NCBI GenBank assembly: GCA_016932855.1
Contig: JAFGCB010000024.1
Location: 2,813-66,812, forward strand
Reading direction: 5' to 3'
DNA from: Candidatus Omnitrophota bacterium
GTDB lineage: Bacteria > Omnitrophota > Gorgyraeia > Duberdicusellales > Duberdicusellaceae
DNA length: 64,000 nucleotides
Positions 25,567 to 40,584 of the stretch are shown piece after piece. The position numbers and the translations under genes were made by a program. The notes below the pieces were generated by a model. The model searched no databases. It saw nothing but the letters and a program-made list of their open reading frames with translations, and was not told where the DNA came from. Within the stretch, counting starts at the first letter, position 1, and each line of letters opens with the position of its first letter.

Positions 25567-26153
25567 TTAATGTAGTTAACGCTGTCTTTTATTGGCTTTC
25601 GGAGAGATCGTGTATTTCTCTGGCTCGCGTATCCGAGTGTGATTACAGCAACCATTTTGCCTTTGTGTCTAAGCAATTTATTTATTTTCTGTGCTTGAAG
25701 TAACGGCGTATCAAGCCAACAAGAGCCAACCCCAAAACTTTCCGCTACTAACATCATATTTTGTATAGCTGCGGCGATGGCGGACAGTTCAACAATATCA
25801 AGGATTCGCTCAAATTTTAAGTACAGTTGCTTGAGTCTGTGTCTCATTGCGTGCATATCTCCAGAATTATAAACAATAATGATGGCTGCCGCGCTACGAA
25901 TTATATTGCTTGCAGAATACTCTAGCAGATTGGATACTGTCTTCGTAGAGGAATCGGCTCTTAATAAAAGTTGAGCAATCTCAACTATAGTTTTTTTGTT
26001 AGTTATCGCGAAGAACTTCCATGGTTGGTAATGATGAACGGCAGGTCCCCATATTCCAGCTTCAATAATTTTCGAGAGAATATTATGAGGTATTCGTTTT
26101 TTCTTATATTCTCGTACACACTGTTTAGACTTTATTAAGCGTAATAATTCCAT
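25563..26153 (-). CDS. nitroreductase family protein
   Basis: 196 aa; N-terminal RIPHNILSKIIEAGIWGPAVHHYQPW nitroreductase-like; 4-bp overlap with the downstream gene. Confidence 0.6.
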   Translation of the reverse strand: MELLRLIKSKQCVREYKKKRIPHNILSKIIEAGIWGPAVHHYQPWKFFAITNKKTIVEIAQLLLRADSSTKTVSNLLEYSASNIIRSAAAIIIVYNSGDMHAMRHRLKQLYLKFERILDIVELSAIAAAIQNMMLVAESFGVGSCWLDTPLLQAQKINKLLRHKGKMVAVITLGYASQRNTRSLRKPIKDSVNYIK

Positions 26154-27241
26154 CTTTTTTCCCCGATTATATCATAAATCGACTTTTGTTCATGGTAATA
26201 TTGAAACGACGGCAATAATTTTTGATCAGTGATCTGTGGAATTCGGAAATTATAACCATCAAGAGTTTTTTGTGTATGTATATAACAGAATTTTGTTGTA
26301 TAGTTAAAGTAGGGTATATATGGTGATGCTAAGATTTTTTGCGCAGGAGTCCAATAAGAATAATCAAACCTCTCAGCCGGTATTAGCCTCGGTGTTCGAA
26401 ATTGAAAAAAACGCGAGGCCAAATCCATGAATTTACCAACATTAAAGGGTTTTGGCGAAACAACATGATAAGTAGTATTGCTGCCCTGATCCCCTAGTAA
26501 AAAAAATACTTTTGCCACTGTATCGATGTTGATTAGATTTTGGTGACAATCAATGTTGATAGGAAACTCATTGTAGATCTCTTTGGAAAAAAAACGAATC
26601 GGTTCGTAGAAAAGTCGGAAAGTGGTGGCTTGGCCAGTCTTGGAATGCCCTATAACCATACTAGGTCTAAAAACAGAAATATTCAGTCCTTTTACGCGAT
26701 AGTCTTGGACTAAAAGCTCGGCTTCATATTTTGTCTGTTCGTAGGTGTTGTTAAATCCCTGGCCGAGCTCTAATTCGTTCTCTCTAAAGTTATAGTCATT
26801 TTTTGTCCCTACTACGTATGCTGTGCTTATATGGTTAAACTTTTCAAGCTTCGGGAATTTCAAAGCGAAATCAAGAACATTTTTTGTGCCCAGAACGTTT
26901 ATTTTTCGGATTACTTCGAGTTCAACTCTTAATTTTGCCAGGGCTGCGCTGTGAAAGATTATTTCGCAATCAGCGCGAATCTCGTCGATTAATTGTTTTG
27001 ACTTTATGCCTAAGTCGGTTAAGGTAATATCGCCATCGACTATTACCAGGTTTTTTGGACTTTGGCTGGTATGTTCTTCAGTCCAGAATTTTAGGGCATT
27101 TAATACTCGCGCCCGCGCAGCTTCTTTTTTACTGCTTCTTGCCAGAGCATAGACTTTACAGCCATTCTCAAGCAGGATTTTTAAAAGATAAGAAGCAACA
27201 AATCCGGTTGCCCCGGTCAATAATACAATTCGTTTTTCCAT
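26135..27241 (-). CDS. thioester reductase-domain (NAD_binding_4, fatty acyl reductase-like) protein
   Basis: LLTGATGFVASYLL Rossmann motif, catalytic YEQTK, alternating CLVR/GDI/HSAA blocks typical of terminal reductase domains. Confidence 0.7.
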   Translation of the reverse strand: MEKRIVLLTGATGFVASYLLKILLENGCKVYALARSSKKEAARARVLNALKFWTEEHTSQSPKNLVIVDGDITLTDLGIKSKQLIDEIRADCEIIFHSAALAKLRVELEVIRKINVLGTKNVLDFALKFPKLEKFNHISTAYVVGTKNDYNFRENELELGQGFNNTYEQTKYEAELLVQDYRVKGLNISVFRPSMVIGHSKTGQATTFRLFYEPIRFFSKEIYNEFPINIDCHQNLINIDTVAKVFFLLGDQGSNTTYHVVSPKPFNVGKFMDLASRFFQFRTPRLIPAERFDYSYWTPAQKILASPYIPYFNYTTKFCYIHTQKTLDGYNFRIPQITDQKLLPSFQYYHEQKSIYDIIGEKRWNYYA

Positions 27242-27256: not shown

Positions 27257-28480
27257 TTATTTGTTATTTAAGCTGCCAAATACCACACAACAATTATTTC
27301 CGCCAAACGCAAAGCCGTTATTTAGGACAATTTTTACTTCTTTTTTTCTAGCCGTATTAGGCACACAATCTATATCACATTCAGGGTCAGGGGTTTCATA
27401 ATTTATTGTGGGCGGGATTAGGCTATTTTCAATAACCAAGCAGCAGACTGCCGCCTCAATCGCCGAGGCTGCGCCCATAGGATGACCAAGCATTGATTTA
27501 ACGGAACTTACAGGAACTTTATAATCCGCGAAGACATCTTTTATAGCTGCGCATTCAACTTTGTCGTTAGTTGGGGTTCCGGTGCCATGGGCGCAGATAT
27601 AATCTACATCCCTGGTAGATAAACCAGCGTCTTTAATCGCCTTTTTCATCACATTCGCAACTCCTTTTGGGTCAGGAGCGGTTATGTGGTAGGCATCACA
27701 GGACAGACCATACCCTAAGACTTCCGCGTATATTTTGGCGTTTCGTTTAAGAGCTGATTCTAAAGACTCCAGAAGTATTACTCCCGCGCCTTCTCCTAAA
27801 ATTAAGCCCTTTCGGTTTTTATCAAACGGCTGGGGTTTTTCAGGGGCCATGCTGTAAAGGCGTTGAAAGCCGACATAGGCGACATGAGAAAAGGCTTCGG
27901 CGCCACCGGCAAGTATAAAATTTAAGTCTCCTTTTCTGATTAAATCATATCCATAGCCGATAGCGTAATTTCCGGCAGCGCAGGCAGTGGGGATTAAGCA
28001 ATTTAATCCCATTGCCTTAAATTGTATCCCGACATTAGCCGGGATATTGTGAACTGCTGCCTGAAGGACTCTTGTCCGGTCAACCTCTTTAAGCCCGCCT
28101 TTTGCCCAGGATTCTATCAATTCTTCCATTGGACGTTCGCCTACCGTAGTCCCGAAGATAATTCCGAATTTTTTTGAGTCGATAGCCGAAGGGTTGAGTT
28201 TCGCGTCTTCCAAGGCCAGATGAGCACCGGCTATCGCCAGCTGCGAGGTTTTCCCGAGAAACCTTGTTTTTCGTTTCGGGATAAAGGCGGCAGGATCAAA
28301 ATCTTTTATTTCACCTCCGTATTTGCAACGAAAACCTTCGGTATCAAAGGAGGTAATTTTACTTACCCCGGATTTTCCGGCGGTCAAGGCTTTCCAGAAA
28401 CCATCTTTCCCTGTTCCGATTGACGATATTACTCCCAGTCCGGTTACAACTATACGTCTTTTATTCCTCATATTTTGCAA
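27257..28480 (-). CDS. beta-ketoacyl-ACP synthase II-like, catalytically intact
   Basis: Active-site Cys in PTACAAG; both His present (CAHGTGT, MLGHPMG). Confidence 0.85.
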   Translation of the reverse strand: MQNMRNKRRIVVTGLGVISSIGTGKDGFWKALTAGKSGVSKITSFDTEGFRCKYGGEIKDFDPAAFIPKRKTRFLGKTSQLAIAGAHLALEDAKLNPSAIDSKKFGIIFGTTVGERPMEELIESWAKGGLKEVDRTRVLQAAVHNIPANVGIQFKAMGLNCLIPTACAAGNYAIGYGYDLIRKGDLNFILAGGAEAFSHVAYVGFQRLYSMAPEKPQPFDKNRKGLILGEGAGVILLESLESALKRNAKIYAEVLGYGLSCDAYHITAPDPKGVANVMKKAIKDAGLSTRDVDYICAHGTGTPTNDKVECAAIKDVFADYKVPVSSVKSMLGHPMGAASAIEAAVCCLVIENSLIPPTINYETPDPECDIDCVPNTARKKEVKIVLNNGFAFGGNNCCVVFGSLNNK

Positions 28481-29732
28481 TTATCGCGCTGGCGTTTCCT
28501 CCACCGGGGCCAAAATTGTTTATTAAAATATTATTAAGGGATTCATGCCTAGCTGAGTTAGGAACGTAATCAAGGTCACATCCGGATGCATTTCCTTCAA
28601 AATTTATTGTAGGAGGGATAACCGCATTTTTTAAAGCTCCTATAGAGGCCGCAATTTGTAATCCTCCATTGGCGCTTACGCTTTCACCGATCATTGACTT
28701 AATCGAGCTTACCGGGATGCTTTTCGAATAAAGTTTAAAGACTTTTTTTATGGCTTCAGTTTCAAGCGTATCCTGCACAGGGACTGAATTGGCAGAGGCG
28801 CAGATGTAGTCTATCTCTTCGGTATTAAGCTCTGCATTCTCTATTGCTCTTGTCATACTTTGGATAAGTCCCTCGGCCTTAGGGGCGTATTTACCGGTTT
28901 TGTAGGCGTCAAAAGAATTTTCAACGCTAAGAATTTCCGCCAGGATATTCGCCTTGCGTTTTTGAGCATATTCTTTATTTTCAATAACCAACGTCGTTGT
29001 TCCTTCGCCGAGAACTATGCCGTTATGTCTTTTATCGTAAGGACAGCTGATTTCAGGGCCTTTTAATCCGGCAAGAAATCCGATTTTATAAAATCCGGTA
29101 AAGTTGGAAAAGGAGAAGCTTTCAATCCCGCAGACAAGAACGATTTGAGCCCGGCCCAGTCTTATCAAATCAATAGCATACTTAAGGGCGTCAAGACCGG
29201 CTGTATAGCCGGTAGATATAGTCGTGTTGAAAGCCCTTGCTTTAAATCGTATAGACAACTGACTGGATGGAAAATTCATGGTAGTAGGCGGAAATAAAGC
29301 CGGGTTAACAAGCTGGGCTCCTTCGTCTACTTGTTCTTTAGTAAATTTTGCCAGATCCGAGGTAATTGAAAGCGTAGTCGCGGTTACCACTCCGATATCG
29401 TCAGCATTCTCGTCGGTTATCTGCAAGTTTGCGTCATCTAAGGCTAATTTTACTCCGGAGCAGAGCAGGGTTGTAGTGCGGTCAAGATTTCTTAAACCCT
29501 TAGTGCCTAAAAAATCTTCAGCTTTGAAATCAGTACATTCTCCGGCAGTTTTAGTCTTAAAAAAGGAGACATCAAAAAGAGTTATGGGTTTAATTCCCGA
29601 TTGGCCAGCATTGAGCGCTTTCCAAAAGGCTTCCTTGCCTGTTCCGTTAGGAGAAATAACACCGATTCCGGTAACTACGACTTGTTTGGCGTTCATTTTT
29701 TTACGTATCCAGGTTTCGTTCAATAATTTCAA
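28461..29732 (-). CDS. ketosynthase-like partner lacking catalytic residues (chain-length-factor-like)
   Basis: KS fold, but Cys replaced (ISTGYTAG) and both His replaced (CASANSV, MIGESVS); 20-bp overlap with the catalytic KS. Confidence 0.75.
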   Translation of the reverse strand: MKLLNETWIRKKMNAKQVVVTGIGVISPNGTGKEAFWKALNAGQSGIKPITLFDVSFFKTKTAGECTDFKAEDFLGTKGLRNLDRTTTLLCSGVKLALDDANLQITDENADDIGVVTATTLSITSDLAKFTKEQVDEGAQLVNPALFPPTTMNFPSSQLSIRFKARAFNTTISTGYTAGLDALKYAIDLIRLGRAQIVLVCGIESFSFSNFTGFYKIGFLAGLKGPEISCPYDKRHNGIVLGEGTTTLVIENKEYAQKRKANILAEILSVENSFDAYKTGKYAPKAEGLIQSMTRAIENAELNTEEIDYICASANSVPVQDTLETEAIKKVFKLYSKSIPVSSIKSMIGESVSANGGLQIAASIGALKNAVIPPTINFEGNASGCDLDYVPNSARHESLNNILINNFGPGGGNASAIIAKYEE

Positions 29733-30078
29733 GAAATTCGTTTGTATCGAACGGTTTATGCAGGTAGCCGGCGACTTTTAAGTTGACTGCCGATTTGTAT
29801 TTATCTTCGTCCACAAAACCGGTAATGAAAACTTCGGGAATCGGTGCTTTTCCCTGTTTTTGGCGAAAGTCACGAATTGACTTTATGGTTTCTATGCCGT
29901 CCATCTCCGGCATTCGTATATCGCAGACTATCATATGGAAATCGTCATTTTGAATCTTCGTAAGAGCATCCGCTCCCCCGTAAGCAATCGTTACCTCATA
30001 GCCTTTCTCTTGGAGTAATTTTTGCAGACTTTTCGTTATAATTTTCTCATCCTCGATTATTAAGATTTTATTTTTCAT
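29701..30078 (-). CDS. single-domain response regulator (CheY-like receiver)
   Basis: 125 aa; acidic pocket IEDE and phospho-Asp in VCDIRMPEMDG; embedded in the lipid operon. Confidence 0.8.
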   Translation of the reverse strand: MKNKILIIEDEKIITKSLQKLLQEKGYEVTIAYGGADALTKIQNDDFHMIVCDIRMPEMDGIETIKSIRDFRQKQGKAPIPEVFITGFVDEDKYKSAVNLKVAGYLHKPFDTNEFLEIIERNLDT

Positions 30079-30548
30079 TATACGCCCCTTTTGTTATTTT
30101 CTTTTAATTTGACTCCGAAAAAAATACGCGCTCGCGCCACTACTTCGTTTTCGACTAAGGCACGGGCTTCGACCATCCCGCTATTATTAAGGATTTTTGC
30201 GGCATTGACTTCTAGAGTCAGCTGGCTACCTGCGGATACAGGCTTAAGGAAATGCGCGTCGACTTTTCCAAGATAATACGACGGTTTTTTATTGGCAATA
30301 TCAGGTTTAAGGACGGAATAAAGGATAATGCTTGCTTGGGCCAGAGCTTCGATGATTATGGCGCCGGGAACAACGGGGTTTTTCGGGAAATGCCCCTGAA
30401 AGAAATGTTCGTTGTAGGAAAAATTTTTCAGGCACTTTATTTTTTTATCCTTTTCGTTAATTTCGGTCACTCTATCGATAAATAAAAACGGATAGTCTTG
30501 GGGAAGAATTGCTTTGATTTGTTCGATATCCCAAATCGCACTCATCAT
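30078..30548 (-). CDS. 3-hydroxyacyl-ACP dehydratase, FabZ/FabA hot-dog family
   Basis: HFFQGHFPKNPVVPGAIIIEALAQ catalytic His motif. Confidence 0.8.
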   Translation of the reverse strand: MMSAIWDIEQIKAILPQDYPFLFIDRVTEINEKDKKIKCLKNFSYNEHFFQGHFPKNPVVPGAIIIEALAQASIILYSVLKPDIANKKPSYYLGKVDAHFLKPVSAGSQLTLEVNAAKILNNSGMVEARALVENEVVARARIFFGVKLKENNKRGV

Positions 30549-30797
30549 TCATTTGTTTAGTGACTTTAAGACAACTTCATATACATTCTCTAGAGACCGT
30601 ATATTCGGTATTTCTTCTTCAGGTATGGTTACTTTATATTTCTTTTCAATGCTGGCTACAATTTCTAATGCCATCATGCTGTCTACGCCCAGCTCGTCGG
30701 CAAAGCTGGCATCATCACGAAGCTCACTTTCGGGCATTTCCACGATCTCCGAGACAGCCTTTTTTATTTCTTTTTTGATTTGTTCAGGCTTGGCCAT
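30549..30797 (-). CDS. acyl carrier protein
   Basis: 82 aa; phosphopantetheine attachment site DLGVDSMMALE. Confidence 0.85.
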   Translation of the reverse strand: MAKPEQIKKEIKKAVSEIVEMPESELRDDASFADELGVDSMMALEIVASIEKKYKVTIPEEEIPNIRSLENVYEVVLKSLNK

Positions 30798-30815: not shown

Positions 30816-31565
30816 TTAAATTGCCAATCCTCCGTCGATCTTTATAACTTCACCTGTTATGTATTCAGATTCACCGGAAGCAAGAAACGCGCAGAGGTTT
30901 GCAACTTCGTTTGCGGTCCCCATCCTTTTTACTGGTATATTTTCGATTATCTTTTTTTTGACATCATCGCGTAAAGCGGTGACCATCTCCGTGGCGATAT
31001 ATCCGGGGCATATGGTATTGACTCGGATATTGTATGACGCAATTTCTTTTGCCAGGGCTTTCGAAAAGCCGATTATGCCGGCCTTTGAAGCGCAGTAATT
31101 AGTTTGCCTTGGCGTTCCTGTTAAACCGCTAACAGAGCTGATATTTAGGATACATCCGCTTTTTTGTTTAAGTAGAGTAGTAATGCAGGCTCTTGTCATA
31201 TTGAATGTGCCGTTTAGGTTTGTATCAATGACGTCTTTCCAGTCTTCCAGGGTCATCATCATTAAGGCTTTATCTTTTATTATGCCGGCATTATTTATTA
31301 AAATATCGATTTTCCTGAAATTATCAAGGGTTTTAGTGACTATTTCCCGGCATTGACCATAGTCGCGTACATCTGCCTGTAAGCTTAAATGCTTACATTG
31401 GCAAGTTTTTAGTTTTTTGGCTAATTCTTGGGCTTCGTCTTTACTTTTAGCGTAGGTAAAGACTACATTTGCACCTAGCTGTGCAAAGAGTTCGCAACAG
31501 GCCCGGCCTATTCCGCGAGAGCCACCGGTAATTATAGCAGTCTGATTTTTAAGCGTTTTTTCCAT
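30816..31565 (-). CDS. fabG: 3-oxoacyl-ACP reductase (SDR)
   Basis: TGGSRGIGRA cofactor motif; NAG, S..YxxxK catalytic residues. Confidence 0.85.
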   Translation of the reverse strand: MEKTLKNQTAIITGGSRGIGRACCELFAQLGANVVFTYAKSKDEAQELAKKLKTCQCKHLSLQADVRDYGQCREIVTKTLDNFRKIDILINNAGIIKDKALMMMTLEDWKDVIDTNLNGTFNMTRACITTLLKQKSGCILNISSVSGLTGTPRQTNYCASKAGIIGFSKALAKEIASYNIRVNTICPGYIATEMVTALRDDVKKKIIENIPVKRMGTANEVANLCAFLASGESEYITGEVIKIDGGLAI

Positions 31566-31664: not shown

Positions 31665-33017
31665 TTATTCCTTCGTCACAATAAAAAAATAAATGTAGCC
31701 GAAGTTGTCAGATTCCAGTATAAGTGCTGAATTTGGAATTCCTGAATCAAGAAATAACTTTCTTACGTCATCCTTTGTTCGGGAGACAAATTTCCAGTCG
31801 CAAAACCAATCCGGGCAAATAGGCGGAATGGTCTTTTCACGATTTTTATGAGTCATTATTATTTTACCATTTTTTTCCAATACCTGAAACAAGGCAAAAA
31901 TGAGCTTTTTTAGGACTCTATCCGGCAAATAGTCAATGAGTCCTATGCTGTAGATTAAGTTTTGTTTTACGGGCAGGTGAGCGATCTGTTTATTTCTTTC
32001 AATATTAACCCCTTGTAGGTGCGAAAAGTGAAATTTAATATTCGGAAACTGCTGGTTAGCAAAAGCCTCGGCTGAGAATTTCAAGGCTTCGCCATCCCAA
32101 TCAAGGCATCTGAAAATCACTGTTTTTTCAGTTTTAAGGCTGAGTAAAAGTTCTCTTATTTCTCTGCAGCAGCTGCAGGCAATGCTTAGAATATGTACCG
32201 GTGAAGCTGGAGTTTCGTGAATAAACTCGGTAATAAGGTTTTTAAGGCGGTCTTTACGTGACCGGGCAGCTACCGCGTAAGGGCTTTTTAGAAAAATGTT
32301 ATCGAAATAAAGACCTATATTTTGGGAAACAGGTTTATTTGAATAAATAAATTCAAGAGCCCGGTGGTCTTCGGAATAGCCCCGGGGTTTGTCAAAGGCC
32401 TGTTTTACGATAATGCTTTTATATATCCAGGCGTCTACCAGGCGCCGGAAGTTGTCTTTAATCCGCTGGGTAGTCTTTTTATCGGCAAGAATAAGCTCCA
32501 GGCTGTAACCTTTTAAGAGGATTTTATTATTTAATTGTTCTATAATAGATTCTAATTCAGGTAGATAGGTTTTGTCGGTATAGGTGCCGGGAATAAGACG
32601 GGTTATTTCAGTTATATATTCAAACATATCTTTGGTAAAAAAATCCCGGACCAATAATCTAGCATCAGATTTCCTAATATCTCGAAGAAGTTGGCTTATT
32701 TGAGCTTTGATTAATTCCTTTCTTAAAGACGTTTTTTCATTTTCGTTAAGTCCGGTAAACTCGAGGCCATAGATGGTGTTGCCGTTATCGACAGTTTTTC
32801 GCCAGGCAAGTTTAGCGGTAGTTTTTATTTTAGAGGTTTTACCGGGGAAATTTATTTGTAAGGAGATTTCCGGACTCGATATCACTTGCGATGCGACAAA
32901 ACTTACCCCTCCTTCGCTTAGGTCAATCGAATCACCCGCGCTTTTAGGGGAAAATTTGAGTTTTAAGTTTGCCTTTATTCTGGGATAAGCCCGTTTTTCC
33001 TGGTAATTTTTATTCAT
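31665..33017 (-). CDS. PilZ domain - class I SAM-dependent methyltransferase-like fusion protein
   Basis: N-terminal RAYPR...DLSEGG PilZ motifs; C-terminal ILSIACSCCREI / LDWDGE / IYSIGLIDYL resemble MTase motifs I, post-I and II. Confidence 0.5.
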   Translation of the reverse strand: MNKNYQEKRAYPRIKANLKLKFSPKSAGDSIDLSEGGVSFVASQVISSPEISLQINFPGKTSKIKTTAKLAWRKTVDNGNTIYGLEFTGLNENEKTSLRKELIKAQISQLLRDIRKSDARLLVRDFFTKDMFEYITEITRLIPGTYTDKTYLPELESIIEQLNNKILLKGYSLELILADKKTTQRIKDNFRRLVDAWIYKSIIVKQAFDKPRGYSEDHRALEFIYSNKPVSQNIGLYFDNIFLKSPYAVAARSRKDRLKNLITEFIHETPASPVHILSIACSCCREIRELLLSLKTEKTVIFRCLDWDGEALKFSAEAFANQQFPNIKFHFSHLQGVNIERNKQIAHLPVKQNLIYSIGLIDYLPDRVLKKLIFALFQVLEKNGKIIMTHKNREKTIPPICPDWFCDWKFVSRTKDDVRKLFLDSGIPNSALILESDNFGYIYFFIVTKE

Positions 33018-33577: not shown

Positions 33578-33617
33578 TCCGCGAAAATTAGTTTAATCAA
33601 TTAGCGAGAATTAGCGT

Positions 33618-33998
33618 TTAAATAATAGTTTTTTTAATCGCCTCTAAAAGCACTGCGTTGTCAAAAGGTTTGTATAAATGCTCTGCTACTTTTAGTTTCA
33701 TCGCTTCCTGGTATTTCTCCATATCAGCATAACCTGTTATTAAAATCTCAGGGATTTGCTTCTTTTTTGCTTTATTTAAGTAGCTGCGGATTTGTTTAAT
33801 TATTTCAATGCCGTCCGCCTCGGGAATTCTGATATCGCAGATAATAAGATTAAAATCAGTTTCCTTTATTTTTTCTAAAGCTTCTTTCCCGCTTTGAGCA
33901 ATGCTTGTTTCATAGCCCGAGGTTTTTAAAAGCATGGATACGCTCTTTGTTACCAGCTCTTCGTCGTCAATCAATAGAATTCTTTTGCTCATAATCAA
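33618..33998 (-). CDS. single-domain response regulator (CheY-like receiver)
   Basis: 126 aa; clear paralog of the 29701 RR (ICDIRIPEADGIEIIKQIR...ILITGY). Confidence 0.8.
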   Translation of the reverse strand: MIMSKRILLIDDEELVTKSVSMLLKTSGYETSIAQSGKEALEKIKETDFNLIICDIRIPEADGIEIIKQIRSYLNKAKKKQIPEILITGYADMEKYQEAMKLKVAEHLYKPFDNAVLLEAIKKTII

Positions 33999-34076
33999 GC
34001 TCCTTTATAAGGGATTCCAGAGATTATTAAAATAGATTACAGAGATTAAATAAATATTACGTTGATTGCGCATTGA

Positions 34077-34487
34077 TTACGGTGATTTTAAATTCAGCCT
34101 TCGTATTTTGCAGCTTTTATTGCCAAAGTTTATCAATAAACCTACATTATAACCTGAGACTTTCATGTAAGACAAAAGCTGCGCTTCGAATAGCCTAGGC
34201 ATGATTCCGGTTACAGCCTTAACTTCGACTATTACCGAATTTTCAATAATTAGATCTATACGAAGAGTTCCGACTTTACGGCTGCGATAATCTACTTTAT
34301 ATTCGCTTTTCGTTGAGTACTTTAGGCCCGCGTCATTTAATGCCAGGTTTAAAGAATTATGATATATTTTTTCATTAAACCCCGGACCTAATTCGCTGTG
34401 AACTTTATACGCACAAGCGATGATTTTTTCCGTAAGCGGATCTCTTTCTTTAATCTTTGAAATCGGTTTCTTAATCTCTGTAATTAT
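34077..34487 (-). CDS. GxxExxY family protein, second paralog; no canonical start codon in frame
   Basis: My own minus-strand translation gives ...EIKKPISKIKERDPLTEKIIACAYKVHSELGPGFNEKIYHNSL...NFGNKSCKIRRLNLKSP*. The frame has no ATG/GTG/TTG near the expected N-terminus (only ATA/ATT) and runs on into the 3' end of the HK gene in another frame. It is absent from the ATG-based ORF track. Confidence 0.5.
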   Translation of the reverse strand: MITEIKKPISKIKERDPLTEKIIACAYKVHSELGPGFNEKIYHNSLNLALNDAGLKYSTKSEYKVDYRSRKVGTLRIDLIIENSVIVEVKAVTGIMPRLFEAQLLSYMKVSGYNVGLLINFGNKSCKIRRLNLKSP

Positions 34488-34501
34488 TGAAGAATATTTT
34501 G

Positions 34502-36697
34502 TTAACTTTTTACTTTGCTTTCTTCTTTCATTGCAGGGAGTTGCACGGTGAATACGGCGCCTTGGTTGGGTTCGGATTCTACTGAAATCGTGCCTTTATG
34601 CTTTGCGATAATTGAATGGCAGATAGAAAGCCCTAGACCAAGTCCTTTGCCTACGTCTTTCGTAGTAAAAAACGGGTCGAATATTTTGGAAAGAATACCT
34701 TGTGGTATGCCCGGACCTTCATCTTGGACTTCAATCATTATCGTTTCATCTTTTTTTGAGATAGCTACATGTATTATACCACTTTTCTTTAAGCGTTTAA
34801 TCGCGTCTTTTGCGTTGAGGATTAGATTGGTTACGACTTGTTCAAGCTCATTGTGATTACCGGAAACAAAATATCCGCCTTCGTCTATTTGAGTGTTTAT
34901 TTTGATATTTTCCTGCTCTAACTGGTAGCTGATAAAAGCAATGGTTATATCTAATACTTTTCTTAAATCGACTTTATCAAGTCGTGCGGATTCAAGAGGC
35001 TTCTTGGCGTAAGTCATAAGTTTCTGGACAATTGTCCGGCATCGTTTCGTCGCCTCCTCTATCAGTTCCAGTGATTCTCTGTCTAATTCCGAATCAATCG
35101 GTTTAGCGGCTAAAAGCATTTGAACATTAGTAAGGATTGCGGTTAAGGGGTTATTTATTTCATGGGCCACTCCTCCGGCCAGGGTGCCTACTGTTGCTAA
35201 CTTTTCTGCCTGAACGAGTTGGTTCTGGACTTCCATTAGTTCTTTGGTCCGCTGGCGCACCTGTTCTTCAATATTTTCATAGCGCAAGGCATTATCAATA
35301 GCCAAAGCAGCTTCGGTTACAAAAACAGAAAAGTTATGTAAATCTTCCGAGGTGTAAGGCCTTTTGGAGAGTTTGTCTCCCAAAATAAGGATGTTTAGCA
35401 ATTTTTCTTCCAGGAAACTAGCCACGACTACCTTGGCGTTTAAAAGGGCCATTTCGCTTTCTAGCTGCGTAAAGACAGAGTCAGGATTGTCTTCGGATTT
35501 TCGTTTTACTTCTTCGTATACAAGGGGTTCGTTTTGCTTTTCAAGGTAGTGAATTAAAGGATTTTTTTTGTCGATGGAAATCGGCTGTTTTTCGTTTAGA
35601 TTGCGGCCGGCTTTAAGGATAAATTGGTTAAATTCCGGATCAAAAAGATAAATTGCGGAATGAGAAATACGGACGGTCTTAGTAATCGTATAAGCAATAA
35701 AATCCAGAAGCTTCTTTGAATTACGGATACGGGCTATTCCGATTGCGGCCTGCTTTAGCGTTTCCTGATAGCTGCGCTGTTCCCGCAAAAGTATTGCTTC
35801 AGCGTTTCGCAGTAAATATATATACGCAAAAGGGCCAGTGGTTGCCAAGATTGCCATAAGAATGAGAGGTCCCAGCCACCAGTTTGTCCCCAAAAAAATA
35901 ATTAACCAATCTTTGCCAGCATTGATTAAAAGAAAAGGCAAGCCAAGTACGATAGTGTAAACTGCAACGAATATAGCAGTGCGAGTTACGACTACGCGGA
36001 TATCCATTAGGCGGTATTTGACGATAGCGTAAGCCATCAGGAGTAAATAAATTATAGTCAAAACATCATGCGGAAAAGAAATCTTGATCCCGAAGACTGA
36101 GAGAAAATAAATAGCTGAACCTAGAAAGCCGATAAATGTAGCTAATAGAAAATATTTAAGTTGATCATTCTTATGGGCTATTGATTTTTTATAAAAGGAA
36201 TATGCTTTACAGAAACCGTATGTCGCATATGAGTACCAATAAAAAAGAAAAAAGTAATAACTCACCCCTGGAACGAGATGCGTTTTAATAAAAGGCAAGT
36301 TGCTAGGAGTAATTTCTCTAAAGAAAAAAGGACTAAGCGTTAATAGAAAGCATAATGGAGAAAGAATGAACGAAGACCGGGCCAGATAAAGACCGATTCG
36401 ATCATTTTCTATCTTTTTGCCAGCTATATTATATACAACTAATAGCCAAAACGCAGGCATAAAGGAAACCGGTGCAAAAAAAAGTTTCTCGTAGAATATT
36501 GATGTCGCTACATTTTGTTTCGTCATTGTTATAAAGTGACTAAAACACCAGCTGCTAATGCAAAGACTAAAAACAAAAAAAACAAAGTTTAGGCTGTTTT
36601 TAATGTTTTTGAGTAATACAAAAACACCAATCCCGAAACTAATTAATACAGCGCTTAGGGTAACGGCCTGGTATACGTTCATACTTATATCCGGCAT
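34502..36697 (-). CDS. sensor histidine kinase, HisKA_7TM-like membrane domain + GAF-like + HisKA + HATPase_c
   Basis: 731 aa; third paralog; H-box GVAHEINNPLTAI; KYRLMDIRVV motif in the membrane domain. Confidence 0.8.
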   Translation of the reverse strand: MPDISMNVYQAVTLSAVLISFGIGVFVLLKNIKNSLNFVFFVFSLCISSWCFSHFITMTKQNVATSIFYEKLFFAPVSFMPAFWLLVVYNIAGKKIENDRIGLYLARSSFILSPLCFLLTLSPFFFREITPSNLPFIKTHLVPGVSYYFFLFYWYSYATYGFCKAYSFYKKSIAHKNDQLKYFLLATFIGFLGSAIYFLSVFGIKISFPHDVLTIIYLLLMAYAIVKYRLMDIRVVVTRTAIFVAVYTIVLGLPFLLINAGKDWLIIFLGTNWWLGPLILMAILATTGPFAYIYLLRNAEAILLREQRSYQETLKQAAIGIARIRNSKKLLDFIAYTITKTVRISHSAIYLFDPEFNQFILKAGRNLNEKQPISIDKKNPLIHYLEKQNEPLVYEEVKRKSEDNPDSVFTQLESEMALLNAKVVVASFLEEKLLNILILGDKLSKRPYTSEDLHNFSVFVTEAALAIDNALRYENIEEQVRQRTKELMEVQNQLVQAEKLATVGTLAGGVAHEINNPLTAILTNVQMLLAAKPIDSELDRESLELIEEATKRCRTIVQKLMTYAKKPLESARLDKVDLRKVLDITIAFISYQLEQENIKINTQIDEGGYFVSGNHNELEQVVTNLILNAKDAIKRLKKSGIIHVAISKKDETIMIEVQDEGPGIPQGILSKIFDPFFTTKDVGKGLGLGLSICHSIIAKHKGTISVESEPNQGAVFTVQLPAMKEESKVKS

Positions 36698-36709: not shown

Positions 36710-38179
36710 TTATTGTTTTCCATTCTTGAATTTATAGGCAAAATCATGCAAATTTAGCCCAAATAGGACAGCCACCAAAGATGCATTTCTTATTTTCCAT
36801 AAGCTTCGGATTACAAAATTAAATCGTTGTTTGTCGAACGAAAGAAAAGCTTTTAACGTAAGCATTAATCTTGTTCGTGAAAATAGAGCGGAAATACTAT
36901 AATTACGTTTTATTAAAACACCGCTTTTCCAGAGATTGACTAGGCGACTATACAGTTGCGGGTAGGAGTATATTTCTTTTAGAACTCGAATGTAGCCTTC
37001 TTCCAGTATTTTTTCGGACATAAATTTTGGTCTAAAACAAACATTGCTAAAAGTATATTTTTCCCAGCTTTCATGCAATAATCTTTGGTCTTTTTTTAAT
37101 CTTTTGTATAAACTTGTACCTACTAAAGGCGTCAGAATAGAAATTTGAGGAAACGCTATGTTAGATTCTTGCACAAAATTGATAATTTCATCAAATGTTT
37201 TTTCATCATCATAATCTTCGCCCAAAACAAAAGCACCCACTATCGAAATTCCAGAATGATGAATCCTATTAATTAATTCAATATATTCATGTCGTTTATT
37301 GACAGTGTTTTTTTTAATTAAATCCAAATTTTCTTGTCGCAAAGATTCGAAGCCGATCAATAATTGTCGACAACCACTCTTGTACATTAACTTCAATAAC
37401 TTATCATCTTTTGCAACATTCAATGAAACTTGTCCCCACCAATATTTAATTTTAAAAGGGGTAATAGCAGTAAAAAGTTCTTTGGCTCGTTCCGTATCAA
37501 AAACTATATTGTCATCGGCGAAAAAAATTCCTTTTCTTTTATCAATTCTTAATAAAGTTTCAATCTCGTGGATAACATTCTGGATTGGCTTTGGCCGGTA
37601 AGTATTACCTAAAAATGAAGTCACAGAACAAAATTCACATTTAAACGGGCACCCCCTAGCGGTTTGCATAATGTGAATATTATAAAGCTTATTTTTTAGC
37701 AAATCCCATCGCGGTACAGGAGAATGTGCTAAATCCGGAAATTTAGGTGCGTAATATATACTTTTAAGCTTTCTCTGACGAAAATCCTTTATTATGTCGG
37801 ACCATATCAGTTCTGCTTCTCCGACAACTACAGAATTTGCAAATTTAGAAGCTTCTTCAGGTAACATAGATGCATGAATTCCTCCTAGAATTACCGGTAT
37901 ATTTCGTTTTCGAAAATTATTTGCTATTTCATAGGCGCGCGGAGCTAGCGACGTATTAAACGTAATTCCTATTAAATCAACATCCTGTTGATAATTAATT
38001 GATTCGATGTTTTCGTCGATAAGTGTTATTTTGACATCTTTTGGAGTCAAGGCGGCTATGGTTGGTAATGCTAAAGGGGCACCCCCGCCGTATTTTCTAC
38101 CCAAAAGCTGAGCGGCAAATTTAAAATCCCAAAAATCGTAATCATCTTTTCTTGCAGGAGATATTAAAGCAAGTTTCAT
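36710..38179 (-). CDS. B12-binding domain radical SAM protein
   Basis: N-terminal cobalamin-binding-like Rossmann region; CPFKCEFCSV CxxxCxxC radical SAM cluster motif; 489 aa. Confidence 0.8.
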   Translation of the reverse strand: MKLALISPARKDDYDFWDFKFAAQLLGRKYGGGAPLALPTIAALTPKDVKITLIDENIESINYQQDVDLIGITFNTSLAPRAYEIANNFRKRNIPVILGGIHASMLPEEASKFANSVVVGEAELIWSDIIKDFRQRKLKSIYYAPKFPDLAHSPVPRWDLLKNKLYNIHIMQTARGCPFKCEFCSVTSFLGNTYRPKPIQNVIHEIETLLRIDKRKGIFFADDNIVFDTERAKELFTAITPFKIKYWWGQVSLNVAKDDKLLKLMYKSGCRQLLIGFESLRQENLDLIKKNTVNKRHEYIELINRIHHSGISIVGAFVLGEDYDDEKTFDEIINFVQESNIAFPQISILTPLVGTSLYKRLKKDQRLLHESWEKYTFSNVCFRPKFMSEKILEEGYIRVLKEIYSYPQLYSRLVNLWKSGVLIKRNYSISALFSRTRLMLTLKAFLSFDKQRFNFVIRSLWKIRNASLVAVLFGLNLHDFAYKFKNGKQ

Positions 38180-38243: not shown

Positions 38244-39812
38244 TTAAACCTTAGCAGTTTCTTTTATTTTTTCAATAAGTGGCTTATCGACTAATCGGTT
38301 TCCCCAGTGGAAATCAGAGACTTCAAAGCCGTGTTTTTTGCCGAGGTTTCTTATTTCATCAATCTTTTCTATGGTTATGTTTCCGCGTCCGAAACTAAAG
38401 TTTTCAAAGCGTTTTTCTAGCGCAAGAATAATTGCTTCAGCAAAGCACCCGTACAGAGTCTCAGTTGTGGGCAGGCCGGTGTCGAAAGGAAATGTAATCG
38501 GCGTGGGAGTTTTGGTTAAGCCTCCGGAGAAAATAAGAATATCTTCCCGGGCGGTGGGCATATAGGAAACATTCTTTGGATATCCGACGTCACAGATTAT
38601 TGCGCCGGGCTTAAACCAACTGACATTAAGAATTGAAGCGCTTACGCTTGCGGCAGCAATAATAATATCAGCATCTCTTACGGCCTTTTCGTTGTCTGTG
38701 GAAGCGACAATTTCAGCTTTGTGTTTTTTTGCTAATTCGTGGCGTAAAGCCCGGAGGTTTGTCTTTGTCCGGCCGGTGATAGTTAATGTTTTTACTTTAT
38801 CGGACAATACTCTTGAGCAAGCGCTTCCGATATCGCCGGTACCACCGATTATAGCGACTTTCACTTGACTTACATCGAGATTTAAAAGTTGCGCGCCTTT
38901 TAGGACTCCATCAATAGCCATGGCTGCGGTAAAGGTATTTCCGGAGGTAAGAGGTACGTCAACTTCATGGGCAGCTTGGTGGCCTATTCTTTCTGCGACG
39001 ATAGAAGTAAAGCCACCCAGGGTTACGATTCCCACTCCTTGTTTTTCAGCGATTTTACAGGCTTTAACAACTTTGGAGAATATTGCCCATTTATCCTTCT
39101 CCATCATATCCGGGATAAAAGTGGCTACAATAAAGCATCCATCTACTGTTTGCCCGGTTTTGGAGCGAAAATCTTTAATGTCTGATAATTTGAACGACGG
39201 TGTTATCTGGAAAAGCTGGCCGAGAAATTCCTGCGACGGTATTTTAAAATCCGGGTTTAACATTTGAAGGCATCTGGCCAGATGATTAAAATTATAGAGA
39301 TGTCCGATAATGCCGAAGCCGGCTAATTTTTCGGTGTCGCCGTTTTTATAGCTGGTATACCTTGTGGATACCAGCCTTTTTTCCAGGGCCATTAATATTG
39401 CGGTAAAGTTGCTAGTAACTATTTGTTTCATAAAAGGTTCGGCAAAATCGCTTATTGCCGGGACACCTGCCCTCAGGTAAACTTTTAGGGAAACTAAAGT
39501 CCCTTCGGGGCGGTCTTCGAATTTCCACTCACCATGAAACTCTTCCAGGTCCCCTTCGATTGTCGTGAAACAGATGGTATTATTTTTTAAATCAAGAGTA
39601 TCTTCCTCTATCCAGCGTATAGGTACCTTGCTTACTTCTATTCGCCAATTTGTTTTCATTTTATTGTGAGTTTTCTCAATTACAGTAGCTTCCTTAACAC
39701 AAGGTACATATGACGGGAATTCCCACACTTTGGTTAAAAGTCGAACTACTCTCCATTTTTGGGCAGGGATTATTCTTGAAACGTTTACTTCGATTAGGTT
39801 TTTATCCGGCAT
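38244..39812 (-). CDS. SRPBCC (polyketide cyclase/START-like) domain fused to acyl-ACP reductase (cyanobacterial AAR-like)
   Basis: C-terminal ~340 aa aligns block by block with Synechococcus acyl-ACP reductase as I recall it: FGIIGHL, LGGFTSIV, TSGNTFTA, VAIIGGTGDIGSACSRVL, DVGYPKN, YGCFAEAIILALE, NFSFGRGNITIEKIDEI, KHGFE. N-terminal ~150 aa is an SRPBCC-type lipid-binding fold. Confidence 0.7.
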   Translation of the reverse strand: MPDKNLIEVNVSRIIPAQKWRVVRLLTKVWEFPSYVPCVKEATVIEKTHNKMKTNWRIEVSKVPIRWIEEDTLDLKNNTICFTTIEGDLEEFHGEWKFEDRPEGTLVSLKVYLRAGVPAISDFAEPFMKQIVTSNFTAILMALEKRLVSTRYTSYKNGDTEKLAGFGIIGHLYNFNHLARCLQMLNPDFKIPSQEFLGQLFQITPSFKLSDIKDFRSKTGQTVDGCFIVATFIPDMMEKDKWAIFSKVVKACKIAEKQGVGIVTLGGFTSIVAERIGHQAAHEVDVPLTSGNTFTAAMAIDGVLKGAQLLNLDVSQVKVAIIGGTGDIGSACSRVLSDKVKTLTITGRTKTNLRALRHELAKKHKAEIVASTDNEKAVRDADIIIAAASVSASILNVSWFKPGAIICDVGYPKNVSYMPTAREDILIFSGGLTKTPTPITFPFDTGLPTTETLYGCFAEAIILALEKRFENFSFGRGNITIEKIDEIRNLGKKHGFEVSDFHWGNRLVDKPLIEKIKETAKV

Positions 39813-40398
39813 TGATTAACTCCTTGATTGTGTTTTTGGTTTTAAGAGTACCTTCCTGTAAGTAAATATCATTAATTACTTCCCCGAATTCTTTCAAAAT
39901 GAATACCGGTTTACCGATTTTTACTTTAATAGGAAGAAAGAATTTTGCGAATCGCGCTCCAAAAGGAAGGGCTTTGTAAGCGCCCAGGATTGCGCAGGGA
40001 AGAATAGGCCTGCCGGTTTTAGCGGCTAAAAGCGCTGCGCCTCTGCGAAATTCACCGAGACTTCCGTCAGTGCTAAGTTTTCCTTCCGGATACAGGCCCA
40101 CGTTTTTATTCTTTAATAATAATCGTACAGCCTTATCTGAGGCATTTCCAGTAGGCAAAGCTTCCACTTTTAAGAGAAACCATTTTATGAAGGCAATTCC
40201 GTAAAGATAACGGGCCACCAGGCAGTAGATTTTTTTGGGAACAGCAGCCATGATGATTAAAGGATCAAGAAAGCTGGCATGGTTGGCAACGATAATGAAA
40301 TTTGTTTTCTGGGGGATGTTTTCTAATCCCTCCACTTCAAATTTGTAAAATGTTTTGAAAAACACGCGAAATATAGCGCAAAATATATAGTACCACAT
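39802..40398 (-). CDS. lysophospholipid (1-acyl-glycerol-3-phosphate-type) acyltransferase, PlsC family
   Basis: HxxxxD motif VANHASFLD; FPEG motif YPEGKLS; 198 aa. Confidence 0.75.
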   Translation of the reverse strand: MWYYIFCAIFRVFFKTFYKFEVEGLENIPQKTNFIIVANHASFLDPLIIMAAVPKKIYCLVARYLYGIAFIKWFLLKVEALPTGNASDKAVRLLLKNKNVGLYPEGKLSTDGSLGEFRRGAALLAAKTGRPILPCAILGAYKALPFGARFAKFFLPIKVKIGKPVFILKEFGEVINDIYLQEGTLKTKNTIKELINAG

Positions 40399-40584
40399 CT
40401 ACTTATTATTGTTATTTTCCTGGTTTTCGACCCATTCCTCTATTTTAGCTTTTTTAAAGCGCCAGTGTTTACCGACCCTAAAGGCCGGGATTTTCCCGGT
40501 CCTTGCCAGTTGATAAAGACTCGAGCGAGGTATTTTTAAATATTTACAGACTTCTTCTGCGGTTAAGATTACTTCTTGTACCAT
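40399..40584 (-). CDS. excisionase/AlpA-family helix-turn-helix DNA-binding protein
   Basis: 61 aa; LTAEEVCKYLKIPRSSLYQLARTGKIPAFRVGKHWRF is typical of the MerR-like excisionase HTH; abuts the plsC-like gene. Confidence 0.6.
   Translation of the reverse strand: MVQEVILTAEEVCKYLKIPRSSLYQLARTGKIPAFRVGKHWRFKKAKIEEWVENQENNNNK

Follow-up and report, generated by a model that had tools for sequence, protein, structure and literature searches.

What does a relative of the cyanobacterial acyl-acyl carrier protein (acyl-ACP) reductase, AAR, do in a bacterium of a candidate phylum, where it is joined to a lipid-binding domain and surrounded by acyltransferase and signaling genes? The question is raised by a gene of a Candidatus Omnitrophota bacterium (GenBank assembly GCA_016932855.1, contig JAFGCB010000024.1, positions 2,813 to 66,812 of the forward strand), and the whole stretch of 64,000 nucleotides in which it lies is called the window below. 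An initial annotation of the window had claimed a fusion gene at positions 38244-39812, whose product would join an N-terminal START/polyketide-cyclase-like domain of the SRPBCC superfamily to an AAR homolog. The open reading frame (ORF) is real: it begins with ATG on the minus strand and codes for 522 amino acids (aa). Here we describe its product as a new architectural and contextual variant of the thioester reductases represented by AAR and by PigE's N-terminal domain (PigE-N), common in one candidate phylum. The reductase probably follows conventional chemistry, and databases already annotate the widespread fusion, if vaguely. At the level of the enzyme, it is with good probability a thioester reductase that works together with its SRPBCC partner, as judged from homology.

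The Reductase Domain

Two NCBIfam models share the top rank almost equally for the C-terminal part of the fusion, spanning aa 166-516 and 166-497: NF053554, which describes the N-terminal thioester-reductase domain of PigE (187.7 bits, E 3.7e-55), and TIGR04058, AcACP_reductase (183.9 bits, E 4.8e-54), which is covered at model positions 2-335 of 339. Among known structures, those of Synechococcus elongatus AAR (6jzq/6jzu) align chain residues 2-335 with aa 166-497 of the fusion at E 9e-38 to ~1e-37, and the PigE structure 4ppm is matched in sequence at E 3e-33; over 347 columns the fusion shares 31.4% identity with S. elongatus AAR. An AlphaFold2 model of the fusion, built from 34 homologs (mean pLDDT 78.9, pTM 0.67), has AAR 6jzy_A as its best Foldseek match (E 5e-24, TM 0.82 on the target). 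The comparison of this part with AAR by hidden Markov models, which the initial annotation had proposed as a check, thus came out in its favor (E 4.8e-54 for TIGR04058, 1e-37 for 6jzq/6jzu). The eight motif blocks that it had quoted are also all present and fall in blocks aligned to S. elongatus AAR: FGIIGHL at aa 166, LGGFTSIV at 265, TSGNTFTA at 289, GGTGDIGSACSRVL at 323, DVGYPKN at 408, YGCFAEAIILALE at 454, NFSFGRGNITIEKIDEI at 471 and KHGFE at 493.

The catalytic residue can be located in the HMMER alignment, in which 'mfaCFAEA' of AAR pairs with 'lyGCFAEA' of the fusion, so that Cys294 of AAR corresponds to Cys456. The acyl group is accepted by Cys294 in AAR and by Cys296 in PigE, the nucleophiles through which these enzymes reduce a thioester to an aldehyde (PMC8341465), and the title of a PDB entry, 'AAR-C294S', agrees with Cys294 as the catalytic residue. 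Cys456 sits in YGCFAEAI and is invariant across 34 Omnitrophota homologs (alignment A1), as is the glycine-rich GGTGDIGS of the dinucleotide-binding site. Among 40 diverse members of the family the catalytic cysteine is at least 90% conserved, and many further core blocks of AAR are strictly conserved across the family. By its sequence, the domain looks catalytically competent, and the TGR that aligns with TAR of AAR suggests NADPH as the cofactor.

Is the fusion then an AAR? It is clearly a member of the AAR/PigE-N superfamily to judge by these alignments, and it shares with cyanobacterial AAR (Orf1594 of S. elongatus; 6JZQ/6JZU) the fold over ~330 residues, the catalytic cysteine, the GxTGDIG/TxR motif and the expected chemistry, from acyl thioester to aldehyde through an acyl-cysteine intermediate. 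However, TIGR04058 has an equivalog cut-off of 449.7 bits, and because the score of the fusion is well under half of this value, it is not, on sequence criteria, an ortholog of AAR. The earlier naming as an AAR homolog therefore holds for end-to-end homology of the domain, the catalytic cysteine and the dinucleotide motif, but not for orthology, PigE-N being equally close. Unlike cyanobacterial AAR, the fusion has an SRPBCC domain at its N-terminus and no aldehyde-deformylating oxygenase (ADO) partner, belongs to an Omnitrophota host, and lies in an acyltransferase/two-component context rather than in an alkane operon.

Other families with a Rossmann fold were weighed and rejected. Glutamyl-tRNA reductase and shikimate dehydrogenase models reach only E 1e-5 to 1e-6 on the Rossmann segment, a range that extends to 1e-9 when cyclodeaminase models are included. 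The matches to families named in automatic labels are limited to aa 300-420 (E 1e-5 to 1e-10), against 1e-54 over 330 residues for AAR/PigE-N, and Pfam has a Shikimate_DH-type Rossmann region at aa 313-417. The initial annotation would have abandoned its assignment had glutamyl-tRNA reductase or shikimate dehydrogenase been the best match; since these models are confined to the Rossmann segment and AAR is by far the stronger match, the assignment stays. PF11139, the model it had named for the comparison, is absent from the Pfam matches of the protein. The second-best structural match of the fusion is the TAD domain of carmabin (PDB 9E4S/9E4U/9E50/9E56; E ~1e-18), for which the entry titles give NAD(H) binding and an active-site cysteine in a disulfide with dephospho-CoA; it differs in being part of a megasynthase, in lacking SRPBCC and in its identity of only 17-19%.

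The SRPBCC Domain

The START/polyketide-cyclase-like nature of the N-terminal domain is borne out by sequence and by fold. PF03364 matches aa 24-135 (8.3e-14; 52.4 bits against a gathering score of 23.4), a second SRPBCC model, PF10604, matches as well (7e-8; 33.3 bits against 27.4), and TTHA0849 (PDB 2d4r) is found at E 1.3e-12 by sequence and with a TM of 0.93 by Foldseek, with further matches to polyketide cyclases and PYL receptors. The domain thus shares the helix-grip fold of START/SRPBCC proteins such as TTHA0849 (2D4R) and the acyl-AcpM-binding MSMEG_5634/Rv0910, and a bacterial START protein known to bind a long-chain acyl-AcpM is a precedent for such a ligand (PMC13525633). Unlike these proteins, it is fused to a thioester reductase or, in relatives, paired with one in an operon.

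A Conserved Pair Outside Omnitrophota

How special is this combination? The reductase domain was searched by HMMER over 1.84 billion representatives clustered at 50% identity, which returned 394 clusters at E ≤1e-30 and 1,831 at E ≤1e-10. At least 150 clusters of non-cyanobacterial proteins score 157 bits or more against the reductase domain alone, a score that all of the best 150 clusters reach; S. elongatus AAR scores 133 bits against the full-length protein, a value from a separate PDB search with a different query. Most of the best 150 are stand-alone proteins of 300-449 aa, and a fused SRPBCC domain is found in 17 of the 150 best 50%-identity representatives. Further modules can precede it, as in PilZ-SRPBCC-AAR (P0173), X-PilZ-SRPBCC-AAR (P0151) and HTH_17-PilZ-SRPBCC-AAR (P0154). 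Three other proteins (P0146, P0181, and P0198) have Arg-rich N-termini of 60-100 aa with 'DRR' or 'RRxxxDRR' repeats before a divergent SRPBCC domain; from their sequence, these repeats may be a binding site for a nucleotide or a second messenger.

Gene contexts outside Omnitrophota-type loci were obtained from six single loci (L006, L007, L008, L009, L090, and L091; Table 1). Where the AAR-like protein stands alone, a homologous SRPBCC gene lies directly upstream in three of the four cases and one gene away in L006, and these separate SRPBCC proteins match the N-terminal domain of the window protein at E 1e-18 to 1e-25. SRPBCC and the AAR-like reductase are thus a conserved functional pair, either fused or adjacent in an operon. 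The other partners are enzymes that would consume aldehydes (or, in the case of GMC oxidoreductases, produce them) or load acyl chains.

Some of these partners recall prodigiosin biosynthesis, which proceeds in turn through a thiamine diphosphate (ThDP) enzyme, an AAR-like reductase and a transaminase (PMC8341465). By analogy, the aminotransferase partner would mirror PigE's C-terminal domain and the ThDP partner PigD, and the contexts of L090, L008, and L091 hint at uncharacterized alkyl-amine or keto-aldehyde products. The fusion resembles PigE's N-terminal domain (NF053554, PDB 4PPM) in its equal sequence match, in the catalytic cysteine and in an aldehyde that is passed to a fused or adjacent partner. 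In contrast to PigE, the window protein has no aminotransferase domain or neighbor, its partner is lipid-building (PlsC) rather than pyrrole-building, and PigE has no SRPBCC domain.

Two of these loci hold unusual enzymes. In L009, two genes after the kinase, a receiver::aldehyde dehydrogenase fusion of 654 aa (15464-17428) is a phospho-control handle on aldehyde removal. In L006, a GMC oxidoreductase (8722-9999) contains an inserted 4Fe-4S ferredoxin-type motif (aa 145-168), which is unusual for the GMC family and, as a sequence feature, would suit an oxygen-independent electron acceptor.

Distribution in Omnitrophota and Conserved Neighbors

Full-length relatives are abundant. A search of 5.8 billion proteins gave more than 1,400 matches, of which the 120 best cover the full length (516-544 aa) at 65-73% identity; where a name is given, it is 'SRPBCC family protein [Candidatus Omnitrophota]' or else 'predicted amino acid dehydrogenase / RatA'. 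When one genome of each GTDB species was scanned with the Omnitrophota alignment A1 as the query, which returned Omnitrophota-type loci only, a relative was found in 147 species genomes, the best 80 being almost all labeled Omnitrophota. Several GTDB records with the gene and operon of the Omnitrophota type (L015, L019-L021, L031, L036, L038, L040, L052, L061, L063, L072, and L075) are titled 'uncultured Planctomycetales/Planctomycetia' or 'Candidatus Uhrbacteria', which probably reflects taxonomic mislabels or binning errors. No description of the fusion was found in the literature that connects acyl-ACP reductases with Omnitrophota, SRPBCC/START proteins or ether lipids.

To compare neighborhoods, ORFs were called in 89 related loci and labeled by phmmer with the window proteins and a few from other loci; the counts below cover 80 species loci unless another total is given. 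The most constant neighbor is a HisKA_7TM histidine kinase within 5 kb downstream on the same strand (52 of 54 loci with enough sequence), nearly always an ortholog of the window gene 34502..36697. Its start codon lies within ~40 nucleotides of the fusion stop codon, often overlapping, in 34 of 63 loci, and it is kept in all 11 loci of a distant group in which the PlsC-type acyltransferase is lost. A receiver-only response regulator follows within 8 kb in 35 of 41 loci. Directly upstream of the fusion, close loci (at least 54% identity) have PlsC in 51 of 62 cases, and an HTH_17 gene lies upstream in 33 of 62. Genes resembling fatty acid synthase or polyketide synthase (PKS) occur within 10 kb in 8 of 30 loci.

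Between the fusion and the kinase lies a variable slot, whose contents differ by locus and which is sometimes empty. It can hold a short-chain dehydrogenase/reductase (SDR) of the NAD-epimerase type, alone or with a formyltransferase-like gene or an unknown gene of 511 aa; a GMC oxidoreductase; an 891-aa protein with AMP-binding, PP-binding and acyltransferase domains; or a second, stand-alone AAR-like paralog. GMC oxidoreductases are direct neighbors in L006, L007, L011, L013, L015, L016, L019, L028, L036, L045, and L065. In the window, the slot is occupied by a cobalamin-type radical SAM protein (B12-rSAM), which is found there in about 5 of the 80 surveyed loci; the related loci that share this position with the window are only L030, L031, L041, and L070. 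One or two extra stand-alone AAR-like paralogs (~330-370 aa), which either separate HTH_17 from PlsC or immediately follow the fusion, were observed in many Omnitrophota loci (L012, L015, L025, L029-L031, L039, L041, L043, L053, L058, L060, L063, L067, L068, and L070-L072).

These counts amend the context given by the initial annotation, which had placed a co-oriented B12-rSAM upstream of the fusion and an overlapping PlsC-type acyltransferase downstream. The co-orientation and the overlap, of 11 nucleotides, are as described, but the order is reversed: the gene is on the minus strand, so that, read as transcribed, PlsC lies upstream of the fusion and the B12-rSAM downstream of it. Nor is the B12-rSAM a conserved partner. 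It is an occasional accessory, while the kinase/regulator pair is the constant, and this pair, like the HTH_17 gene that opens the operon, had been overlooked.

A Proposed Thioester Reductase with an Aldehyde Carrier for Lipid Synthesis

From the observed architecture, homology, catalytic residues and neighborhoods we infer a substrate, a direction of reaction, a role for the SRPBCC domain, a product and a mode of control. The fusion would be a soluble two-domain enzyme whose C-terminal domain acts as an NAD(P)H-dependent acyl-thioester reductase: Cys456 would take over an acyl chain from a thioester, which is most likely acyl-ACP, and reduction of the resulting acyl-enzyme would yield a fatty aldehyde. 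The pocket of the SRPBCC domain might take up the insoluble, reactive aldehyde (or present the acyl chain) and pass it to the next enzyme, a job that would be the counterpart of ADO docking for cyanobacterial AAR. Channeling of the products of AAR and of glutamyl-tRNA reductase has been summarized (PMC8341465). In Omnitrophota the next steps would be lipid-building and not alkane-forming, the fusion apparently being translationally coupled to a PlsC/AGPAT-type acyltransferase.

Which lipid could be made? The closest guide is the Elb system of Myxococcus xanthus, in which ElbD consists of FAR-like, ACS, ACP and AGPAT-like parts, ElbA and ElbE belong to the NAD-epimerase family, and the i15:0 aldehyde depends on ElbD; in anaerobes, ElbD-like proteins 'almost all lack a FAR1 domain' (PMC9131029). 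ElbD matches were found in 93 of 267 Omnitrophota metagenome-assembled genomes in a survey of the Black Sea (PMC11868695). Omnitrophota have many ACS-ACP-AT proteins of ~900 aa without a reductase (NAD_binding_4) domain, and the AT domain of one of them is 33.5% identical to the PlsC of the window. This abundance and this likeness make it plausible, by analogy, that the AAR-like fusion is the reductase acting in trans for FAR-less ElbD-like systems.

PlsC and the partners that vary among lineages would together reproduce the domain content of Elb, the AAR-like domain standing in for the FAR domain that is missing. These partners are an ElbE-like SDR of the NAD-epimerase type, an ACS-ACP-AT protein that resembles ElbD but lacks FAR, a GMC flavoprotein or, in the case of the window, the B12-rSAM; the ElbE-like SDR or the ACS-ACP-AT gene is directly downstream of the fusion in several loci. 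On this likeness, an ether-type or otherwise modified glycerolipid would be the likeliest product. The initial annotation had supposed that the aldehyde is reduced to an alcohol for ether or wax lipids, a reasonable guess of which the ether part gains indirect support from the Elb-like gene content.

The correspondence with Elb is partial. Common to both are the clustering of thioester reduction with an AGPAT-like acyltransferase and ACP, to which sister loci add ACS-ACP-AT and the epimerase-type SDR. In the window, an AGPAT-like acyltransferase is indeed clustered with a thioester reductase, and an ACP gene is present (30549..30797); there is no AMP-binding gene in the window, and the ACS-ACP-AT proteins of Omnitrophota contain no FAR-type (NAD_binding_4) domain. 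Unlike in Elb, the reductase is AAR-like and not homologous to NAD_binding_4/FAR, each part has a gene of its own, and there are in addition an SRPBCC domain and a kinase/regulator pair.

Several observations weigh against this proposal. PlsC is upstream of the fusion in only 1 of 15 distant loci (47-49% identity), which shows that lipid acylation is not the universal fate of the product, and an ACS-ACP-AT gene adjoins the fusion in only 3 of 85 Omnitrophota loci (L004, L005, and L036). Another thioester reductase, of the unrelated NAD_binding_4 type, is already encoded in the island around the fusion, so that it is less obvious why an AAR-like one is needed, and GMC oxidoreductases normally oxidize alcohols, which fits the oxidative direction. 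The geometry of the two domains has no confident prediction, and the placement of the SRPBCC domain relative to the ADO docking site is not resolved by the model (linker pLDDT <50, pTM 0.67). The mechanism of Elb itself is poorly understood, so that the analogy links one such system to another. Taken as a whole, an SRPBCC-aided acyl-thioester reductase that feeds an Elb-like route to ether or modified glycerolipids under two-component control is a reading to which we would give about even confidence; the ether-lipid fate of the product, drawn from the Elb analogy, is possible rather than probable.

Control or Signal?

The kinase, which is more constant than any enzyme partner, needs an explanation of its own. 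Its sensor part has seven transmembrane helices (7TM) without a large periplasmic domain, and in the literature HisKA_7TM was found only in archaeal two-component censuses. In the proposed scheme, the co-transcribed 7TM-GAF kinase and one or more CheY-like regulators would control the enzyme, and cyclic di-GMP (c-di-GMP) would do so through PilZ in some lineages. The regulators of the island are receiver-only and must act through protein contacts. Because of these receiver-only regulators, the PilZ and HTH fusions and the receiver::aldehyde dehydrogenase, we rank a reading in which the two-component system and c-di-GMP act on the enzyme as their output above one in which the enzyme synthesizes a signal.

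The latter possibility deserves attention all the same. CAI-1 (CqsA/CqsS) and DSF (RpfF/RpfC) are signals derived from acyl thioesters, and their synthase genes lie beside those of multi-pass sensor kinases. By comparison, the enzyme might make a fatty aldehyde or a derivative of it as a membrane-soluble signal, the SRPBCC domain might carry it, and the adjacent 7TM kinase might be its receptor. An acyl-modifying enzyme gene beside a polytopic kinase and a regulator is indeed what des-desK-desR, cqsA-cqsS and rpfF-rpfC have in common with the present locus, which differs from them in its HisKA_7TM-GAF kinase, its receiver-only regulators and its enzyme family.

A receptor would agree with the 52 of 54 loci in which the kinase is kept, its frequent translational coupling, its retention where PlsC is lost (11 of 11), a sensor without a large periplasmic domain, and the several paralogous 7TM kinases and receiver-only regulators around the gene. 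The response regulator::aldehyde dehydrogenase of L009 would fit turnover of the signal, and the ThDP enzyme that accompanies the module in L008 and L091 recalls the chemistry of PigD/PigE, by which small ketone or aldehyde molecules are built. Adjacency alone, however, does not separate a receptor from a regulator; an enzyme to which PilZ or HTH domains are fused looks less like a constitutive synthase than like an output under regulation; the coupling to PlsC and the Elb-like partners speak for lipid chemistry in bulk; and we know of no fatty-aldehyde quorum signal. A signal synthase/receptor pair is therefore unlikely. It is likewise doubtful, and a speculation of ours, that SRPBCC and the AAR-like reductase form an old 'aldehyde generator and carrier' module that Omnitrophota have built with the kinase and CheY-like regulators into a lipid-aldehyde signaling circuit, gated by c-di-GMP in some lineages.

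Other Explanations

Could the enzyme run in the opposite direction? As an acylating fatty-aldehyde dehydrogenase it would salvage alcohols or aldehydes, imported or released from ether lipids: the SRPBCC domain would hold the ligand, a GMC enzyme would oxidize alcohol to aldehyde, the AAR-like domain would pass it through acyl-Cys456 to ACP or CoA, and PlsC would place it in phospholipid. Interconversion of thioester and aldehyde is chemically reversible, as acylating aldehyde dehydrogenases illustrate. The frequent GMC neighbors, usually alcohol-oxidizing, the FadL/Toluene_X outer-membrane channel directly upstream in L008, and the use of acyl thioesters as substrates by PlsC-type enzymes are all in line with salvage. 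Yet both characterized relatives, AAR and PigE-N, are reductive, the TGR aligned with TAR of AAR suggests NADPH, a biosynthetic cofactor, and the ACS and ACP genes beside the stand-alone homolog of L006 fit the loading of a substrate for reduction, which makes salvage distinctly unlikely.

It is more improbable still that the fusion is mainly a non-catalytic sensor of the acyl-ACP and/or NADPH state, relaying it to the kinase and regulator or, via HTH_17, to DNA. The HTH_17-PilZ-SRPBCC-AAR protein (P0154) does resemble a one-component regulator, and two-component genes are constantly coupled to the fusion; but the strict conservation of the catalytic cysteine, the dinucleotide motif and the AAR core blocks argues for retained catalysis, and enzyme partners such as aminotransferase, ThDP, GMC and ACS/ACP proteins need a product to work on.

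A true alkane pathway is very unlikely. In cyanobacteria the AAR and ADO genes are normally adjacent. An ADO query from S. elongatus, validated against PDB (E 4e-152 to 4quw and 6jzu_B), did not find ADO in the window by tblastn (best E 0.41), which confirms the earlier statement that the window has no ADO partner; it gave nothing significant by tblastn in five related loci (L001-L005), and no ferritin-like partner is annotated or detected at the conserved positions of 91 loci. ADO requires O2, and Omnitrophota have been recovered mostly from anoxic settings. An AAR of the alkane pathway, with its ADO gene at some other place in the genome, would have the homology across the full domain and the retained catalytic cysteine in its favor, but against it stand 183.9 bits where the equivalog cut-off asks for 449.7, the missing ADO at a position where cyanobacteria would have it, the lack of any ferritin-like partner, the oxygen that such an enzyme would need, and an SRPBCC domain that has taken the partner role. 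Finally, the labels that the source records carry, a COG5322 amino-acid dehydrogenase with a RatA-like ribosome toxin, or a glutamyl-tRNA reductase/shikimate dehydrogenase, agree with weak matches to these families in the Rossmann part only and are scarcely tenable, since the RatA model scores 22 bits against a cut-off of 258, the fold match is AAR, and AAR/PigE-N at E 1e-54 over 330 residues contradicts such automatic naming.

Genes Around the Fusion in the Window

The genes of the island are co-directional on the minus strand, with overlaps or short gaps from HTH_17 onward (Table 1). Because promoter and terminator scans gave results no better than those for shuffled sequence, the claim of an operon rests on these overlaps and short gaps only.

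Table 1. Features of the fusion gene, of the surrounding island and of related loci outside Omnitrophota (coordinates refer to the window, or to the named locus)
Feature	Coordinates	Strand	Remarks
SRPBCC::AAR-like fusion	38244..39812	-	ATG start, 522 aa
SRPBCC/START helix-grip domain	39348..39794	-	aa 7-155; long C-terminal helix aa 121-155 (model)
Inter-domain linker	39318..39371	-	aa 148-165; predicted flexible, pLDDT <50 for aa 148-162
AAR-like acyl-thioester reductase domain	38322..39317	-	aa 166-497; TIGR04058, NF053554, 6jzq, Foldseek
Dinucleotide-binding motif GGTGDIGS	38823..38846	-	aa 323-330; GATGDIGS in AAR
TGR motif	38769-38777	-	aa 346-348; counterpart of TAR in AAR
Cys456 codon	38445..38447	-	Equivalent of AAR Cys294 and PigE Cys296
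HTH_17 (excisionase-type) DNA-binding protein	40399..40584	-	61 aa; PF12728 2.9e-19; first gene of the array
PlsC/AGPAT-type acyltransferase	39802..40398	-	198 aa; PF01553 6.6e-23
Cobalamin-type radical SAM protein with DUF4070	36710..38179	-	489 aa; PF04055, PF13282, PF02310
HisKA_7TM-GAF-HisKA-HATPase histidine kinase	34502..36697	-	731 aa; Pfam
Receiver-only response regulator	33618..33998	-	126 aa; PF00072 1.6e-25, no output domain
PilZ::methyltransferase fusion	31665..33017	-	450 aa; PF07238, PF12147 (Methyltransf_20); c-di-GMP receptor domain and S-adenosylmethionine (SAM) methyltransferase
FabG-type ketoreductase	30816..31565	-	Translation
Acyl carrier protein	30549..30797	-	Translation
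FabZ-type dehydratase	30078..30548	-	Translation
Receiver-only response regulator, second	29701..30078	-	Listed among the island genes
Ketosynthase, chain-length-factor-like	28461..29732	-	423 aa; without Cys-His-His triad (alignment with FabF)
Ketosynthase with Cys-His-His triad	27257..28480	-	407 aa; Pfam, FabF alignment
NAD_binding_4 (FAR/terminal R-domain type) thioester reductase	26135..27241	-	368 aa; PF07993 1.2e-54
Nitroreductase-family flavoprotein	25563..26153	-	Pfam
CrtI-like amine oxidase	24112..25566	-	Pfam
Further HisKA_7TM histidine kinases	21910..24111, 19750..21369	-	Paralogs flanking ispF
L006 (Desulfobacterales)			SRPBCC, GMC, AAR-like, AMP-ligase, ACP, rSAM
L007			HTH-PilZ fusion, then GMC oxidoreductase and 7TM kinase
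L008	9512-12901		FadL-type channel (FadL/Toluene_X), SRPBCC, AAR-like, ThDP enzyme, 7TM kinase, regulator
L009			43%-identical fusion, then 7TM-GAF kinase, second kinase, response-regulator::aldehyde-dehydrogenase fusion
L090	1273-4069		Class-III aminotransferase, SRPBCC, AAR-like; a split PigE
L091	7552-10873		SRPBCC, AAR-like, ThDP enzyme

The stop codon of HTH_17 abuts the start codon of PlsC, which has an N-terminal hydrophobic helix, the H-X4-D motif (NHASFLD) and a YPEG block, and whose best NCBIfam matches are to the acyl-ACP--phospholipid O-acyltransferase (Aas) domain. The B12-rSAM has NCBIfam matches to HpnJ, BchE, PhpK and rSAM_ladder_B12, all of them far below the cut-offs, and a paper on membrane-spanning lipid synthases contains nothing to assign it. 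Three paralogous HisKA_7TM kinases lie within 17 kb (19750-36697), interleaved with biosynthetic genes and the two receiver-only regulators; no regulator with a DNA-binding output domain was found in the island. Kin of the PilZ::methyltransferase (MT341, PilZ_MT) recur downstream of the kinase in many Omnitrophota loci, and the c-di-GMP receptor domain of this protein suggests a c-di-GMP-controlled methylation step within the same system.

Farther downstream are the FabG/ACP/FabZ genes, which form a dedicated carrier and processing set; their counterparts in L003 and L004 have adh_short, PP-binding and FabA/ApeI-like/ApeP-like matches. In the 423-aa ketosynthase, TGY, ASANS, and GES replace the active-site Cys, His, and His of FabF and of its 407-aa partner. 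The NAD_binding_4 reductase adjoins the ketosynthase/chain-length factor pair, ACP and FabZ also in L053, L060, and L069. The ketosynthase/chain-length factor-like pair with a ketoreductase, a dehydratase, ACP, the NAD_binding_4 reductase, a nitroreductase and a CrtI-like oxidase, and with no enoyl reductase, resembles a lipid set of the type II PKS-like or aryl-polyene-like kind, from which an aldehyde or an alcohol is released.

Two insertions and one displacement were also seen. A PD-(D/E)XK_3 ('GxxExxY') gene (33125-33577, minus strand) and a truncated second copy (34077-34202, minus strand) fill the two largest intergenic gaps of the island, and in L003 a 23S_rRNA_IVP-family gene is inserted at a comparable spot of the FAS-like cluster; these genes are small and possibly mobile colonizers of operon gaps. 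In many bacteria ispD and ispF are adjacent or fused, and here ispD (41966-42652) and ispF (21366-21824) are split by the whole 21-kb co-directional island, with ispF wedged between two 7TM kinase genes at spacings of 4 and 85 nucleotides.

Significance

AAR has usually been seen as a cyanobacterial alkane enzyme and PigE as an isolated exception, and the searches described here reveal a large non-cyanobacterial family. An SRPBCC domain instead of ADO as a recurrent partner suggests a general answer to the handling of insoluble, reactive fatty aldehydes, and the domain could serve as a ready-made carrier for engineering the production of aldehydes, alcohols or amines. In anaerobes, ElbD-like proteins without FAR lack a reductase, as work on ether lipids has pointed out; the fusion is a candidate for it and so opens a testable route to bacterial ether lipids, compounds of importance as environmental biomarkers. 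The coupling to a 7TM kinase, which is nearly obligate, together with the PilZ and HTH fusions, suggests a direct control of lipid-aldehyde metabolism by signaling that has so far not been described. If the enzyme were instead to make a signal for the kinase, that signal would belong to a new class among those that bacteria derive from acyl-ACP, in a phylum whose members are ultra-small and possibly depend on hosts.

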